Part shown: one piece after another, positions 18,701 through 27,700 of the stretch
Position numbering within the stretch: the stretch's first letter is position 1
Layout of the letters: each line of letters begins with the position of its first letter
From: Myxococcota bacterium
Lineage (GTDB): Bacteria; Myxococcota_A; UBA9160; UBA6930
NCBI GenBank assembly: GCA_965223415.1
Contig: OZ245002.1
Span: 1,888,001-1,952,000, forward strand
Direction of reading: 5' to 3'
Length of the DNA stretch: 64,000 nucleotides
Made by a program: the position numbers

Positions 18701-21700
18701 ACGATGCCCACATCCTCGACCGTGTGGTGCAGGTCCACCTCGAGATCGCCCTTCGCCCGCAGATGCAGATCGAAGAGCCCGTGCTTGGCGAAGCTCTCCA
18801 GCATGTGGTCGAAGAACGGGATGCCGGTGGATACGTCGTACTGCCCCGTCCCGTCGATCTCGAAGGCGAGACGGATCTCCGTCTCGCGGGTCTTGCGCTC
18901 GATCGTCGCTGCCCGACCGCTCATGACTAGATCTCCAGCTCCGCCTCGCGGGCGGCCTCGCGCTCCCGTCGCGCCCGGCGGATCTTCTGCAGTCGCAGCT
19001 CCACCGACGCACCGTGGCCCGTGAAGCCCTCCATCTCGGCGAGCCGCATCACGTCGGCGCCGAGCTCCCGCAGCTTCGGCGGCTCGAAGCGCACGAAGGC
19101 CGTGCGCTTCAGGAAGTCGTCGATGCCGAGCGGAGAGAAGAAGCGCGCGGTGCCGCCGGTCGGCAGCACGTGGTTCGGCCCCGCCAGGTAGTCGCCCACG
19201 GCCACCGGCGTGTAGTGCCCGAGGAAGACCGTGCCTGCGTTCTCCACCTTCTTGAGCGCCACGTCGGGTGCGTCGATGGCCAGCACCAGGTGCTCCGGCG
19301 CGTAGCGGTTCGCCACCTCGATCGACTGGTCGAGATCCTTCGTCACGATCGCCGCGCCCCCGGCCTTGAGCGCCGCCCGGGCGATCTTCTCGCGCCCCTG
19401 GCCCTTCAGCTGCTTGGCGATCTGGTCCTGCACCCGCGTCGCGATCGACTTCACGTGGGTGACGAGCACGGCGCTGGCGCCTTCCTCGTGCTCGGCCTGG
19501 GAGATCAGGTCCGCGGCCACCCACGCCGGCGTGGCGGTCTTGTCGGCCACCACCACCACCTCGGTGGCACCGGCCTCGCTGTCGATGTCGACCTCGCCGA
19601 ACACCTGGCGCTTGGCCTCCTGCACCCACGCGTTGCCGGGTCCGACGATCTTGTCGACCCGCGGCACGCTCTCGGTGCCGAAGGAGAGCGCGGCCACCGC
19701 CTGGGCGCCGCCCATCTTGAAGACGCGGTGCACGCCGGCCACCTTGGCCGCCATCAGCACCTCCTTGCGGATGCTGCCGTCGGCCTGGGGAGGCGTGGCC
19801 ATGATGATCTCCGGCACCTCCACCACCGAGGCGGGCACCGCGTTCATGATCACCGTCGAGGGATAGCTGGCCTTGCCCCCGGGCACGTAGATGCCGACGC
19901 GCTGCAGCGCGCGCACGCGCTGGCCCATGAAGCCGCCGCCCTCTTCGCGCATCTCCCAGCTCGAGGGGATGCGTTTCTTGTGGAACTCCCGCACGCGCAT
20001 GGCGGCCTTGCCGAGGGCCGCCCGATCCGCGGGATCGACGGCCTCGCAGGCCTCCTCCCACTCGTCGCGCTGCACCTCGAGCTCGTCCAGCGCGGCGCCG
20101 TCGAACTTCTTGGTGAGGGCCAGGACACCGTCGTCCCCCTCTTCACGCACCTGCTCGACGATCTTCTGGACCTGCTTGCCCAGGCTCTCGTCGCGCTCCT
20201 CCCGCCGCCGGCACAGCTTCTCGAACGCGCGCTCGAAGCCCGCGTCGCCCGCCTGCAGCTGCTTGAGGATCCCCGCCTTCGTCGCACGGCTCGCCATCGT
20301 TCACCCCCCCCCGCCGCGGGTCTTCGACCCGCGACCACCCGCGCCCGGTCCGCGAGGTCCCGGTGCGCCGTCACCTGTTCGAAGCCGGCCTCCTGCAGCC
20401 AGCTCGCCATCTCCTCGGCCTGATGCGGCGCCAGCTCGACGCCGAGCCAGCCGCCCGGGCGAAGCCGCTCCCCGGCCTCGCTCGCGACGCGCTGCAGCAG
20501 CTCGGTGCCGAGGGGCCCCGCGAAGAGCGCCCGCTTCGGCTCGTGGGCGAGCTCCGGCGCCAGCTCCGCGGCGTCGCCTTCCGCCAGGTAGGGCGGGTTC
20601 GACACGATCATGTCAAAGCGTCGATCCGCCACCGGCGCGAAGCCGTCGCCGCACAGCAGCTCCACGCGCTCCGCCAGCTCGAGCCGCTCCGCGTTGCCCC
20701 GAGCCACCTCGAGGGCCGCCGCCGAGAGATCGGTGGCGGTGACCTGCGCCTCGGGTCGCTCCTTCGCCAGCGCCAGCGCGATCGCTCCGGAGCCGGTGCC
20801 GAGATCGAGGATCCGCAGCGCGGTCTCCCCGTCCTCGGTGGCCCGAAGGGCGGCCTCGACCAGCGTCTCGGTCTCCGGCCGGGGAACCAGCACGTCCGGC
20901 GTCACCTCGAGCGGAAGCGACCAGAACTCCTTCGTCCCGAGCAGCAGGGCCACGGGCACGCGCTCCTCGGCCCGGCGGCGCACCAGCTCGCGGAAGCGCG
21001 CCCGCTCCTCCGGCGTCACCGGCTTCTCGAAATCGAGGTAGAGGCGCAGGCGCTCGACCTTTAGCGCGGCGGCGAGCAGGCACTCGGCGTCGAGACGCGG
21101 CGAGTCGATGCCCTTCTCCACGAAGAAGCCCGTGGTCCACTGGAGGAGCTCCAGCACCGTCCAGCGCCGGGCGTCGGCGGCGGGCCGGCTCACAGGTCCT
21201 TCTCCGCCTGCTCGGCGAGGGCGCCGTGCACGCCGTCGAGCAGCTCGTCGAGATCGCCTTCCATGCAGCTCTCGAGCTTGTGCATGGTGAAGCTGGCCCG
21301 GTGATCGGTCACGCGGTTCTGGGGGAAGTTGTAGGTGCGGATCTTCTCGCTGCGCTCGCCACTCCCGACCTGGGCGCGGCGCTCACTGGCGCGCTCGGCG
21401 TGCTGGCGCTCGAGCTCGGCCTCGAGCAGCCGCGAGCGCAGCACCTTCATCGCCTTGGCCTTGTTCTTGTGCTGGCTCTTTTCGTCCTGGCAGGTCACGA
21501 CGACGCCGGTGGGCTCGTGGGTGATGCGCACGGCCGAGTCGGTGGTGTTCACGCTCTGGCCGCCGGGGCCCGAGGAGCGGAACACGTCGATGCGCAGATC
21601 GTTCGCGTCGATCTCGACGTCGACCTCCTCGGCTTCGGGCATCACCGCCACCGTCACCGTCGAGGTGTGGATGCGGCCCTGGCTCTCGGTGCTGGGCACA

Positions 21701-24700: not shown

Positions 24701-27700
24701 CGGGCAGCCAGGGGAGGACGGCGGCTGCGGCCGCGAGCACCACCACGCCGAGGAGGAGCTTCCGGAGCACGCCTAACGACTGCCGCCCGGCTCGAGGGCG
24801 TCGTCGATGGCGTCGCGGATCGCGCCGGCGAGCTCGCCGCCCAGCTCCTCGGACCAGCGCCGGGCGCGCTCCTGCCAGGCCTCCACCTCGCGGTCCCAGG
24901 CGCCCCGGCGAGCCGGCCGCCTTCGCGCCGCCTCCCGGCGGGCCGGACGCTCCGGCCGCGGGGAAACGCGGGTCTGGGCCGTGCCGGCCGCCACGTCCCC
25001 GCGCTCGACCCGGGCCCGGTAGCGCTTCGCCCGCTCCCGCTCGAGCTCCCGGTAGTGCTCGGCGGCGGCCTCGTCACGAGAGTCCCAGGCGATGGCCGGC
25101 GCAGCCACGACCAGGCCGAGGACGAGGACCAGAGGCAGGCTGCGGGCGAGGGAGGTCATGGTGGGCTCGGGGCGCGAGGATACGACGGCCGACGGGATCG
25201 GGGCATTCACGAGGGATACGGCCCGGCCGGGAGCCCGGTTCGCGGCACGCGGCCGCGCCTTCCGGATCGCCCCGTGGGGAGGCCCGGCGGGGAGCGTGGA
25301 TCAGCCGGGCTGGATCCAGTGCACGAGACGGCCCGTGTCCGGACCGTCACGGCGGACACTGAAGAAGGGCGCACCGGGGCAGGCGGTGCAGCTCCCGGTG
25401 ACGTGCTCGACCCGCCCGATCCCCGCCTCCCGCAGCGCCGCGCCCGCGATCACACCGAGGTCGAGCCACACGTGACCCGGCCGCGACGGGCGGGTCGCGC
25501 CGTCGAGCTCCGCCGCGAAGGGCTCGCGGAGGGCGGCGAGCACGGGCTCGTCCACCTCGTAGCAGCACGGCCCGACGTGGGGACCGACCGCGGCGACCAG
25601 CGCACCCCCCCGGAGCTGGCGGAGCGCCGCGACGCCCGCTCCCACGACCCCGGCGGCCAGGCCGCGCCAGCCGCCGTGGATGGCGGCCACGGCGCGACCG
25701 TGCTCGGCAGCGACGAGGATCGGCACGCAGTCGGCGGTGACGATGCCGACGGGGACGTCCGGGTGGTCGCAGACCACGGCGTCCCCCCAGCCGAGAGGCT
25801 CTTCGCTGGGACCGTGCACCCGCACCACGTCGACTCCGTGCACCTGCTGCGGCCGGCGCAGCCGGTCCGGAGCCGTCGCGCCGCGTGTGCCGAAGCCGTG
25901 GCGCACCGGAAGGGACGACGCGCGAAGGCAGGCGCTCACCCTTCCCGCTCTCCGAGCTGCCGCTCGAGCTCCTGGAGATCCGCCGGCAGGAGAGCTTCGA
26001 AGTGCAGGCGCTCGCCGATGGTGGGATGGGTGAAGCCGAGCGCCGCCGCGTGAAGGGCGGGGCGGCGGAAGCGCACCGGGCCCTTCGCCCGACGGCCGCG
26101 CCCGTAGACCCCGTCGCCGAGCAGCGGCAGGCCGCGGCTGGAGAGATGGACGCGGATCTGGTGCGTCCGCCCCGTCTCCGGCCGGATTGCCAGACGAGCG
26201 ATACCGCTCGCCGGATAGCGCCGCTCCACCTCCCAGTTCGTGCGGGCCGCTCGTGCGTGGCGCGCCGCGACGGACATGCGCTTGCGATCGCGCGGATGGC
26301 GGCCGATCGGCTGGTCGATCCGCCCGCCGTCCTCCTTCGGCACGCCACGCACCCAGGCGCGGTAGAGCCGATCGATTTCGTGGGTGCGGAACTGCTCCGC
26401 CAGCGAGAGGTGCGCCGCGTCGTGCTTGGCCACGACCATCACCCCAGACGTGCCGCGATCGAGGCGGTGCACGATGCCCGGCCGCAGCACGCCGCCGATG
26501 CCCGCGAGATCGCCGCAGTGGTGCAGCAGCGCATTCACGAGCGTGCCCCGGGGATGCCCCGGCGCCGGATGCACGACCAGGCCCGGCGGCTTGTCGAGGA
26601 CGACGACGGCTTCGTCCTCGAAGAGGATCTCGAGGGGAATCGCCTCGGGGACCACCGCCGCGTCCACCGGTTCCGGCGGATCCGCCTCGATGCGATCGCC
26701 CTCGCGCACGTGGGCGCTCGGCTTGGCCGCCTCGCCGTTCAGGTGCAGGCGCCCCGCCTGGGCCCAGCGCTGGACCTGGGCCCGCGGCACGCCGAGCAGG
26801 ACTGCGGCGACCCGATCCAGCCGCTGGCCGGCCTCGCCCTCCCCGACCAGCAACTCGAGGCTCACCAGATGCGGGACGGAACGCCCGAGCTGCGGAAGAC
26901 CAGCACGTCGACCAGCGCGCGCTCGAAGGCGTTGGTCTTGGCCGCCACGTCCGGATCGACCCGCGACTCGAAGTAGGTTCGCGCCTCGCGGATCTCGGGT
27001 TCGAGGCGGGCGAAGAGGTCGTCGTGCTCGATGCCGAGCCGCACCTTCTCCGGGTGATAGCTCATCACGTCCGAGAGGATCGCGCGCGCCAGCCGGGCCG
27101 CCCGCTCCGGATCGACGATCGGCTGCACGGCGACCTAACGCCGAGCCCGCCGCCCGAGGCTGGGTTCCTCGGGGACGTGCTCGCGGAAACGAGCCATGTA
27201 GCTGGTCGCCACGCGGTCGGCATCGAGCCCGATGCACCGGCAGAGCGAGACGACGAAGCCGCGCGCGTAAACCGCCGCCGGCAGGTCTTCGAACTGGTCC
27301 TGCTCGATGAACTGGAGGTAGGTCGGGTTGATCTTGGTGACCTCGGCGATCTTCTCGAGGTCGATGCCGCGCCGCAGGCGCGCCCGGCGCAGGCGTGCGC
27401 CGGTCCACGCCGCGTCGGCGTCCTCGTCGCCGGCGTCGTCGAAGGTCTCGATCTCGGCGGGCACCAGGTCGACCGAAGCGGCGGCGTTGGATTCGTCGGC
27501 GAACTGCAGGTCGAGATCGAGCTCGACCTCGTCGAGGAGCGGCGCCTCCTGGGGAGCGAGACGACCGTCGTACTCGGCCTTGGTGTCGACGTCCGAGAGC
27601 ACCCGGTAGGCCAGCTCGATGCGCTCCCGCATGGCCTCGGCCTCGCCGTCCTCGTAGAGGGAGTAGGTGGCGAGCCCGTCCTCCGCCCAGGTGGCCTGGG

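Follow-up and report, generated by a model that had tools for sequence, protein, structure and literature searches.

Probable clean deletion of rho from a conserved gene order in a Myxococcota bacterium, as one case of recurrent loss within its family

High-GC Actinomycetota keep Rho, which is essential in them, and carry hairpin "terminators" without U tracts as well as a conserved hairpin repeat, TRIT; whether these U-less hairpins terminate transcription is disputed. In Proteobacteria, REP/RAYT elements (REPINs) are short extragenic palindromes that occur in tens of copies with a bias towards gene 3' ends, and a Y1-transposase gene lies between two element halves. Bacteria without Rho are already known, and the genome studied here adds another. 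In a published study of Rho diversification, 284 of 2753 RefSeq genomes were without functional Rho, among them three that are large and high in GC: Haliangium ochraceum (the one case among 12 Myxococcota), Conexibacter woesei and Baekduia soli (PMC11347177). Cyanobacteria also have no Rho; according to PMC13289151, canonical intrinsic terminators close only a minority of their transcription units, 22% of units have intrinsic-terminator-like ends, the role of Mfd is limited and undescribed mechanisms have been proposed.

The genome of the Myxococcota bacterium (G000) is one contig of 5,833,097 bases with a G+C content of 0.710 and zero N, and its completeness was estimated at 97.3%. A check for circular closure showed ends that do not overlap and only a weak GC skew. 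The nearest named relatives carry the labels Deltaproteobacteria or Myxococcota MAG. In the window (the whole stretch of 64,000 nt analysed), the genes from hisD to rluD all lie on the minus strand; their order is based on Pfam and NCBIfam searches. In window coordinates, the features are as follows.

25936-26865, minus strand: rluD-type pseudouridine synthase (PseudoU_synth_2 and S4), member of the conserved upstream block
25301-25939, minus strand: pgeF (Cu-oxidase_4 / peptidoglycan editing factor; PF02578, 160 bits), upstream neighbour of the rho slot
25160-25300, minus strand: spacer of 141 nt that separates the pgeF stop and the ATG of the small ORF, the site of rho and a leader of about 250 nt in relatives
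24773-25159, minus strand: small ORF (g01751) of 128 aa, its N-terminus resembling a signal peptide and its remainder rich in Arg and Glu, first gene of the envelope island
22497-24770, minus strand: class-A penicillin-binding protein (PBP), PBP1b-like (Transgly PF00912, 195 bits; Transpeptidase PF00905, 80 bits; UB2H, 40 bits)
21190-22260, minus strand: prfA, release factor 1 (PCRF, 247 bits; RF-1, 156 bits), flanking the ancestral rho slot on its downstream side
19850-21193, minus strand: prmC (PrmC_N and MTS domains at residues 15-223 of a 447-aa ORF)
18927-20297, minus strand: hisD, beyond prmC in the gene order

The PgeF protein scored 116.5 bits against TIGR00726, under the cut-off of 141 bits. 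The small ORF had no NCBIfam match; its stop lies 2 nt ahead of the PBP start, and its position upstream of the PBP gene is kept in genera g1, g5 and g11. Because glycosyltransferase and transpeptidase domains are found in one protein, the PBP belongs to class A, with scores under the equivalog cut-offs (544 versus 718 bits for TIGR02071, PBP1b; 494 versus 509 bits for the PBP1a family). The prfA gene was detected in 33 of 33 genomes of the family. The prmC frame lacks a stop where one would be expected and reads on into hisD for about 450 nt; at 20303, an additional C is present in one Logan contig (run X4, depth 4.6), and the other three runs match the genome.

The survey's finding that this genome encodes no Rho was borne out by profile searches, by tblastn with the Rho proteins of relatives and by the empty slot. 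In a six-frame search with TIGR00767, the curated threshold of 509 bits was not reached: the best match (56.6 bits) was FliI (TIGR01026, 506 bits), and the second (31 bits) was AtpD (TIGR01039, 818 bits). The OB-fold domain Rho_RNA_bind (PF07497) was not found, its best score over the genome being 11.9 bits (E = 1.04) within an 828-aa frame. When the Rho proteins of G027 and G023 were used as tblastn queries against the whole genome, only FliI, AtpD and one further ATPase were recovered. No remnant of rho was detected in the 141-nt slot: comparison with the rho regions of relatives gave chance-level matches only, the lowest E values being 0.37 by tblastn and 0.4 by blastn. Logan contigs from three runs, which may represent the source sample of the genome itself, spanned window positions 24162-27500 with 0 differences, and the junction is therefore no assembly artefact.

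The relatives showed where rho had been. In 8 of 8 genomes examined from other families of the order, pgeF lies directly upstream of rho in the order pgeF-rho-prfA, and the same contiguous arrangement was present in seven Rho-positive genomes of the same family (G023, G015, G006, G007, G008, G009 and G010). The earlier proposal that rho was deleted from a conserved position flanked by pgeF and prfA was thus upheld, with 141 nt left in this genome. The proposal that the PBP gene and the small ORF stand there instead of rho had to be abandoned, since both coexist with rho in G025 and G027 (genus g11), where the order is pgeF-rho-smallORF-PBP-Lgt-...-prfA and the small-ORF ATG overlaps the rho stop as ATGA. 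It follows from this order that the island is older than the excision of rho. These comparisons showed that the order as a whole inherited the block rne / selA-HNH-parA-...-rluD-pgeF-rho-prfA-prmC-hisD from its ancestor, that an envelope island (small ORF, PBP1b-like gene, Lgt, PAP2) entered between rho and prfA in the ancestor of genera g1, g4, g5, g7, g9 and g11, and that rho was later excised, together with its leader, in separate lineages. The deletion boundaries correspond to gap columns 234-1760 of a MAFFT alignment, with the pgeF stop at one edge and the start of the small ORF at the other. In rho-less species of g11, the pgeF stop abuts the small-ORF start, and the 141 nt are kept in G000.

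The distribution of Rho agreed with the counts given before: in the genus, four of the five other genomes had no match and the fifth, G003, had only a fragment on an 800-bp contig, and 15 of 32 genomes within the family had a match. Rho was matched in 115 of 119 genomes of the order outside the family and in 119 of 151 genomes of a phylum sample in which G000 was counted; the 32 genomes of that sample without a match included whole families (0 of 9 and 2 of 11 with a match). Every relative is a draft bin, in most cases incomplete (75-100%), and G000 alone is a single contig, so the absences in relatives had been regarded as soft. They proved harder than feared. The prfA region was fetched from 19 genomes without full-length rho; the contigs of five ended too early, and in the other 14, from six genera, pgeF and prfA lie on the same contig with no rho between them, which indicates that these absences are real. 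The G003 fragment (G+C 0.64) departs at 28 of 173 order-invariant columns, 4 of these in common with G027, and looks, from its sequence, to be of foreign origin. The rho-less G026 also bears a Rho fragment, on a 2070-bp contig. Taken together, these results confirm that rho is missing from this genome, and it is highly probable that it was lost by clean deletion and that this is one case of recurrent loss within one clade of the family. The role of Rho had probably changed or shrunk at or near the clade base already, which would have made its deletion tolerable repeatedly.

Canonical terminators do not offer an alternative. As had been claimed before, they are not enriched after genes: with gene ends set by a home-made gene caller that uses codon usage, a hairpin with a T tract was found at 132 of 5216 gene ends in the sense direction (2.5%) and at 108 in the antisense direction (2.1%), that is, at background level. 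A terminator scan of positions 14000-33900 found 4 versus 5.7 +/- 2.2 in shuffles, and T4 followed 65 of 1005 gene ends versus 66 of 1005 for A4, with no T enrichment. Hairpin-plus-U-tract terminators were at background in Rho-positive and Rho-negative relatives alike. As a tentative reading, the clade may end transcription without Rho or U-tract terminators by an undescribed route that arose, or became sufficient, at the base of the clade; the RNA-recognition half of Rho would have been reshaped first, and at least five deletions of rho would have followed.

A slightly more doubtful reading than the undescribed route is the origin, at the clade base, of a factor or pathway for termination that is not homologous to Rho, assumed its task and made rho dispensable. 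That rho was lost repeatedly in one clade, after being kept in 115 of 119 genomes elsewhere in the order, would be expected from one enabling change; no canonical terminators serve as a fallback; and rho-less cyanobacteria are reported (PMC13289151) to end most transcripts by unknown means. However, no candidate for a replacement factor was found among the factors and slot genes of G000 that were examined. NusA, Mfd and a single NusG are present, RNase J and beta-CASP nucleases were not found in this genome, the one Upf1/Sen1-like helicase present carries fused nuclease domains and resembles a DNA-repair or defence protein, and the genes inserted at the slot encode envelope and lipid enzymes. 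It is also conceivable, with still greater doubt, that transcripts end diffusely through combined contributors: U-less GC-rich hairpins, among them the REP-like palindromes located at the 3' ends of genes, might act with help from NusA/NusG, Mfd might clear stalled polymerases, polymerases might meet head-on in tight convergent pairs and RNA decay might trim the transcript ends.

The claim that U-less hairpins are enriched between convergent genes stood as an observation. Convergent pairs are very tight in this genome (median spacer 21 nt), and for those with spacers of at least 60 nt the excess of folding energy peaks 40 nt past the stops, at -4.0 kcal/mol versus shuffles. The excess at convergent ends was -3.58 in this genome versus -1.42 in Rho-positive relatives (Mann-Whitney p=0.018). 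As a sign of a replacement mechanism, the enrichment did not stand: about half of the strongest hairpins in convergent spacers (54 of 115) belong to a REP/RAYT-like palindrome family that is also present in Rho-positive relatives. Since these palindromes occur in Rho-positive genera and the excess without them (-1.93) is similar to that of Rho-positive relatives, the enrichment does not point to a replacement for Rho. Two copies of the palindrome lie in the window.

39171-39244, no strand assigned: REP-like palindrome copy (subfamily AGACAAGGGGACGTTCC...), between convergent genes
59001-59048, no strand assigned: REP-like palindrome, second copy, between co-directional genes

The palindrome is a multi-copy extragenic element with 83 copies in the genome, 80 of them in spacers (46 convergent, 32 co-directional and 2 divergent; 0.55, 0.12 and 0.012 per kb); the hairpins fold at -30 to -37 kcal/mol, and Rfam gave only sub-threshold miRNA-hairpin matches. 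One Y1-transposase gene (genome positions 859214-859990) is flanked by subfamily-1 halves and another (near 3235933-3236696) by subfamily-2 halves, the right one degenerate; the two genes match PF01797 weakly, at 33.4 and 26.0 bits versus a cut-off of 23 bits. Because both subfamilies bracket such a gene, they are probably mobile elements. It is unlikely that U-less hairpins, notably these palindromes at gene 3' ends, became terminators that replaced Rho. The peak of the folding excess 40 nt beyond convergent stops, the preference of the palindromes for convergent over divergent spacers (46 versus 2), the larger convergent excess than in Rho-positive relatives and the highest palindrome number in the family (71 in the family-wide comparison) would agree with such a role. 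However, palindromes are also found in Rho-positive genomes (20, 2, 9 and 18 in g2, 20 in g6, 18 in G025 and 26 in G027) and are missing from the rho-less genera g4, g5 and g7; copy numbers are not comparable among genomes because draft bins under-assemble repeats. Moreover, they bracket Y1-transposase genes, as mobile elements do, and where spacers measure at least 60 nt they are present at only 92 of 544 gene ends in convergent and 73 of 1005 in co-directional arrangement. No such excess was seen in G020 (-0.70 +/- 0.65, n=46), an independent genome without rho whose gene calls are poor (76% coding).

The number of losses was derived from a FastTree LG+G tree of 9 proteins with SH-like supports, whose genes form one linked block and which covers 34 of 39 genomes (five with fewer than 1000 aligned aa were dropped). 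The family was monophyletic (1.0), and all rho-less genomes fell in a single clade (0.973). G025 and G027, the only sampled species of this clade that still have rho, were nested within g11 (1.0), with G030 outside the pair. A clade-specific R to H substitution in the YILVxM motif of NusG, an unlinked locus, agrees with the rho-losing clade. With these two genomes nested inside the rho-less clade, at least five independent losses are required if rho was not regained.

The Rho of G025 and G027 is 64-65% identical to that of G023, compared with 77-89% for all other Rho of the order, and among the 241 columns on which 16 other Rho proteins all agree it departs at 36 and 40 (0-9 in leave-one-out controls). 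Its RNA-binding half is remodelled, and purifying selection persists; the remodelling was seen in the g11 lineage alone and may date to the clade base or to g11. This outlying sequence on a long branch, with a weakly supported attachment beside G018 (0.31-0.43), would also be expected if rho had been lost once at the clade base and regained by G025 and G027 through horizontal transfer. That course of events is improbable, since their rho occupies precisely the ancestral position, after pgeF and before the island, and its stop overlaps the start of the small ORF; the unrooted Rho tree joins it beside g8, which the species tree places as sister to the clade; and its ATPase half is near the order consensus. 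Finally, it is hardly credible that a Rho exists and escaped the search by being over-diverged, split or on DNA outside the assembly: completeness falls short of 100%, the contig ends do not overlap and other genomes searched hold diverged, motor-dead Rho relatives, but six-frame profiles gave FliI and AtpD only, same-family queries added nothing Rho-like, the ancestral slot is intact, empty and spanned by independent contigs, and the identical empty slot is found in 14 relatives. If the reading of an undescribed route at the clade base is true, the species of g11 with and without rho are a natural experiment for finding that route.

Compared with the published study of Rho diversification (PMC11347177), the loss is here traced to an exactly placed deletion within a slot shared across the order, at least five losses are placed in one family, and species with and without rho are found in one genus; the fraction of the phylum sample without a Rho match (32 of 151) is far above the published 1 of 12 Myxococcota. 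The genome resembles cyanobacteria, as described in PMC13289151, in that Rho is absent and canonical terminators are scarce; the canonical motif is at background here (2.5% sense versus 2.1% antisense), whereas 22% of cyanobacterial units still have intrinsic-terminator-like ends. The cyanobacterial loss of rho is ancient and phylum-wide, whereas the loss described here is recent and recurrent. As in Actinomycetota, GC-rich U-less stem-loops gather between convergent genes and some come from a repeat family, but the repeat described here is distinct in sequence and flanks Y1-transposase genes. The palindromes are like REPINs in being multi-copy, extragenic and biased towards 3' ends, with a Y1-transposase gene between inverted halves; as far as tested, they differ from known REPs in that the family is unrelated in sequence, has no Rfam match and is associated with weak Y1 matches (33 and 26 bits).

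A six-frame search of G000, the genome under study (one contig of 5,833,097 bases, 71.0% G+C, no N; "one contig" denotes contiguity and does not imply circularity), with the Rho profile TIGR00767 gave matches of 56.6, 31, 18.7 and 10.1 bits, all far below the cut-off of 509 bits. The two best open reading frames were FliI (56.6 bits) and the F1 beta subunit (31 bits). The best match to PF07497 (Rho_RNA_bind) was 11.9 bits at E=1, and tblastn of G000 with Rho proteins of the same family (from G027 and G023) recovered only FliI, the F1 beta subunit and one more ATPase. The slot between pgeF and prfA, which houses rho in related genomes, was read in the window as follows.

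Genes around the slot
29386-30780, minus strand, selA
28768-29364, minus strand, HNH endonuclease gene, 198 aa, between selA and the ParA-like gene
between the HNH gene and rluD, minus strand, ParA-like gene, RodZ-like gene and 88-aa ORF
25936-26865, minus strand, rluD
25301-25939, minus strand, pgeF
25160-25300, minus strand, spacer of 141 nt from pgeF to the 128-aa ORF
24773-25159, minus strand, 128-aa ORF with a signal-peptide-like start
22497-24770, minus strand, class-A penicillin-binding protein (PBP) with Transgly, Transpeptidase and UB2H domains
21190-22260, minus strand, prfA
19850-21193, minus strand, prmC reading frame, between prfA and hisD
18927-20297, minus strand, hisD

This order, from selA through rluD, pgeF, the spacer, the ORF and the PBP to prfA, prmC and hisD, agrees with the survey's account of the slot genes. 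No rho remnant was found in the slot, and positions 24162-27500 were bridged without difference by contigs from independent assemblies of three public runs, which are possibly the source of G000 itself. Considering the profile searches, tblastn, the slot and the bridged junction together, the reported absence of Rho was upheld: G000 truly lacks rho, as the result of an evolutionary deletion.

Two neighbouring genes deserve mention. In most genomes fetched from the same and other families, the HNH gene (28768-29364, minus strand) was conserved in this position with 60-92% identity, which is unusual for an HNH gene. The prmC frame (19850-21193, minus strand) has no stop at the end point seen in relatives and overlaps hisD, in another frame, for about 450 nt. 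One low-depth contig of run X4 had an additional C at 20303, in the prmC region, and three other runs agreed with the genome. The overrun may be a genuine C-terminal extension; otherwise it is a minority variant or an error.

For the 19 family genomes without full-length rho, sequence upstream of prfA was fetched. In 14 of them (G002, G003, G004, G005; G013, G014; G024, G026, G030, G031; G020; G011, G012; G016), one contig carried both pgeF and prfA, and rho was missing from the interval; in the other five (G001, G019, G028, G029, G032) the contig broke off too soon. In the four rho-less genomes of genus g11, the start of the small ORF directly followed the pgeF stop, and in the g11 alignment one gap of roughly 1.5 kb covered rho and its leader. 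The absences in relatives had been considered soft because most of these genomes are metagenome bins; with 14 slots whole on one contig and empty of rho, they are real.

Rho fragments were present in two genomes whose slots are intact and empty. The piece in G003, on an 800-bp contig with a G+C of 0.64, was about equally far (67-71%) from each of the order's Rho proteins and was changed at 28 of 173 invariant columns, four of these changes being common to G027. The N-terminal piece in G026, on a 2070-bp contig, was 44-48% identical to the Rho proteins of the order and 35-37% identical to those of G025 and G027. Contamination is the likelier origin of both fragments.

TIGR00767 matches were obtained in 1 of 5 genomes of the genus, that one being only a fragment, and in 15 of 32 of the family. 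The order gave 128 of 146 including G000 (13/26 in the family and 115/119 outside it). The phylum sample took in genomes with a completeness of 92% or more; of its 151 genomes, G000 among them, 119 had a match and 32 had none. Families wholly or mostly rho-less had matches in 0/9, 2/11, 0/2 and 2/4 genomes. Several other families of this sample had Rho-like matches only below the cut-off (225-450 bits), and family f17 regularly carried a second, N-terminally truncated Rho copy (model positions about 128-413, 360-390 bits).

The neighbourhood of rho was fetched from 10 Rho-containing genomes of the family and 8 genomes of the order's other families, and the window proteins were mapped onto them by tblastn. 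The order rne / selA-HNH-parA-...-rluD-pgeF-rho-prfA-prmC-hisD was found in seven family genomes (G023, G015, G006, G007, G008, G009, G010), and the same block order with pgeF-rho-prfA in all eight genomes of other families. G017 had the block order of the other Rho-containing genomes, but spread over two contigs, and in G018 rho and prfA were 5 kb apart. This synteny indicates that the pgeF-rho-prfA slot is ancient.

In one clade, an envelope island (window 22497-25159, minus strand; also loci L109, L121 and L122) was inserted between rho and prfA. It comprises the small ORF, a PBP1b-like protein, Lgt and PAP2 and occurs in g1, g5 and g11, and in part, as Lgt and PAP2, in g9. G027 and G025, both of g11, had the arrangement pgeF-rho-small ORF-PBP, followed in G027 by Lgt and prfA, and the small-ORF start overlapped the rho stop as ATGA. 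The survey had placed the PBP and the small ORF in the slot instead of rho; a replacement of this kind is contradicted by G027 and G025, in which rho and the island stand side by side. Because of this coexistence and the spread of the island over g1, g5, g11 and, in part, g9, the island is older than the loss of rho. G000 retains only the first two island genes. The closest named relatives of the PBP outside the family were 46-52% identical and mostly labelled Gemmatimonadota MAGs. The small ORF, predicted to be secreted, ends 2 nt upstream of the PBP gene and could encode a PBP partner. The slots of other rho-less genomes held no RNA-related replacement gene, their contents being Lgt, PAP2, patatin, WS/DGAT, amidohydrolase, SDR and ceramidase-like genes.

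A tree of nine linked proteins of the block (FastTree, LG+gamma) was built for the 34 genomes that offered 1000 or more aligned residues; five genomes with short contigs were left out, and G021 and G022 were not in the data set. The family was monophyletic (support 1.0), the Rho-containing genera g6, g3, g10, g2 and g8 split off first, and every rho-less genome fell in one clade (0.973). The same clade was marked at a locus unlinked to the block by an R to H substitution in the YILVxM motif of NusG. Within it, G025 and G027, which contain Rho, formed the sister group of G026, G024 and G031; G030 lay outside these (1.0), and g9 came next (0.999). If rho was never regained, this topology would require five deletions: in g1; in g5, g7 and g4 together; in g9; in G030; and in G026, G024 and G031 together. 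Even with deeper nodes redrawn, at least two losses would be required, since genus g11 contains species both with and without rho.

The Rho remaining in this clade is altered. It was 64-65% identical to that of G023, compared with 77-89% for the order's other Rho proteins. Sixteen other Rho proteins share 241 invariant columns; G027 differed at 36 of these and G025 at 40, against 0-9 in leave-one-out controls. DGFGFLR has become DGCGFLR, for example, and KEGERYFALLKV has become YGDERHLTLAQI, in segments which we take to be the primary site of RNA binding in E. coli Rho; the ATPase Walker and loop motifs were intact. In the Rho tree, the G025/G027 branch was 0.36 long versus 0.004-0.17 elsewhere; its attachment beside g8 matched the species tree but was weakly supported. 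The dN/dS ratio between the two genes was 0.128 overall, 0.043 in the ATPase part and 0.242 in the N-terminal part, and that of four control pairs was 0.08-0.23 overall. The gene is therefore functional and changed, not decaying.

Rho is usually held to be near-indispensable in GC-rich bacteria, where intrinsic terminators are few. Gene ends in G000 were studied in a set of 5216 genes (91% coding) from a codon log-odds caller, which still miscalls prmC because of its overlap with hisD. T4 runs were scarce (0.13 per kb). On the sense strand after gene ends, T4 was not in excess over A4 (65 vs 66 of 1005 co-directional and 25 vs 34 of 544 convergent ends), and a hairpin with a T-rich tail occurred at 132 of 5216 ends in the sense versus 108 in the antisense direction. 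It could thus be confirmed that canonical terminators are not enriched after genes. Similar counts in the Rho-containing relatives G017 (14 vs 11 of 514) and G008 (14 vs 22 of 514) indicate that the family as a whole lacks them. C>G skew after stops and coding-strand G-C or purine bias, examined as a footprint of Rho use, did not distinguish G000 and G020 from Rho-containing G017, G008 and G023. Convergent pairs in G000 had a median stop-to-stop distance of 21 nt (834 pairs, only 272 with 60 nt or more), so that most convergent transcripts must end within the opposing gene.

The reported enrichment of hairpins between convergent genes was reproduced: in convergent spacers of at least 60 nt, folding energy minus shuffle reached a peak of -4.0 kcal/mol at 40 nt past the stop, with a peak of -1.1 kcal/mol in co-directional spacers and none in short ones. 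However, 54 of the 115 strongest convergent-spacer hairpins belonged to one repeat family of near-perfect palindromes, 45-75 nt long, with conserved outer arms GGGGACGTTCC...GGAACGTCCCC. Two copies lie in the window.

Palindrome copies, no strand assigned
39171-39244, palindrome copy
59001-59048, palindrome copy

Two subfamilies accounted for 40 and 41 of the 83 copies in the genome. The outer arms were kept across genera, and the inner stems differed yet remained complementary. The copies lay in convergent (46), co-directional (32) and divergent (2) spacers and in called genes (3), which corresponds to 0.55, 0.12 and 0.012 per kb of the respective spacers, a strong bias to gene 3' ends. REP elements are known to bracket RAYT genes, and the palindromes resemble them in that each subfamily flanks a Y1-transposase gene (859214-859990 and about 3235933-3236696 of G000). 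An Rfam search with one copy gave only sub-threshold miRNA-hairpin matches. The arm pattern was counted 71 times in G000, 20, 2, 9 and 18 times in g2 genomes, 20 in g6, 6 and 8 in g9, and 2-27 in g11, including Rho-containing G025 (18) and G027 (26); it was not found in g3, g4, g5, g7, g8 and g10. The pattern is therefore common to genomes with and without Rho.

Compensation for Rho by these hairpins was considered, as the excess at convergent ends was greater in G000 than in Rho-containing genomes (p=0.018), but this difference was due to the REP-like family and was absent in rho-less G020. The excess at convergent ends in G000 was -1.93 +/- 0.29 once gene ends carrying the arm motif were left out; it was -1.42 (n=102) in 1.57 Mb pooled from three Rho-containing genomes and -0.70 +/- 0.65 (n=46) in G020, where gene calls are poor. 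In G020:C10:1000001-1400000 (L225-L244), 76% was called coding versus 87-91% in other genomes and 91% in G000 with the same caller, which suggests an assembly with many frameshifts. No terminator-like feature was seen to track the loss of rho, and a hairpin in a convergent spacer can be a mobile REP-like element instead of a terminator.

Among other factors, G000 encodes NusA (420 bits), Mfd (1025 bits) and one NusG, in which the KOW domain is conserved, FGRATPV is kept and a few substitutions are specific to the clade. A Upf1/Sen1-like helicase was considered as a termination factor. This protein, the sole AAA_12 protein of G000, proved to be a 1137-aa fusion of PD-(D/E)XK, RNase_H_2 and SF1 helicase (AAA_11/AAA_12) domains (G000:C1:1862498-1865911, plus strand, some 22 kb upstream of the window); fused to nuclease domains, it looks like a DNA enzyme. 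Neither RNase J nor a Beta-Casp domain was found in G000, and therefore there is no torpedo candidate.

The family-wide lack of canonical terminators, together with the repeated discarding of rho in one clade, sharpens the question of what ends transcription in bacteria that have neither textbook mechanism. The clade offers unusually good material for it: the slot is conserved and its deletion scars are clean, congeners differ in whether they have rho, and the Rho that survives is remodelled in its RNA-binding domain. In the literature searched, no report of repeated Rho loss in Myxococcota was found. PMC11347177 gives 284 Rho-less genomes in a set of 2753, including Haliangium ochraceum as the one member of Myxococcota and two high-GC Actinomycetota, and its tables may list more species. 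Rho loss in the phylum (32/151 sampled) is much commoner than this single published case. In Rho-less Synechococcus, according to PMC13289151, most transcription units end without canonical terminators, and unknown mechanisms were proposed. G000 belongs to an already known kind, the Rho-less bacteria, to which it adds new and useful detail.
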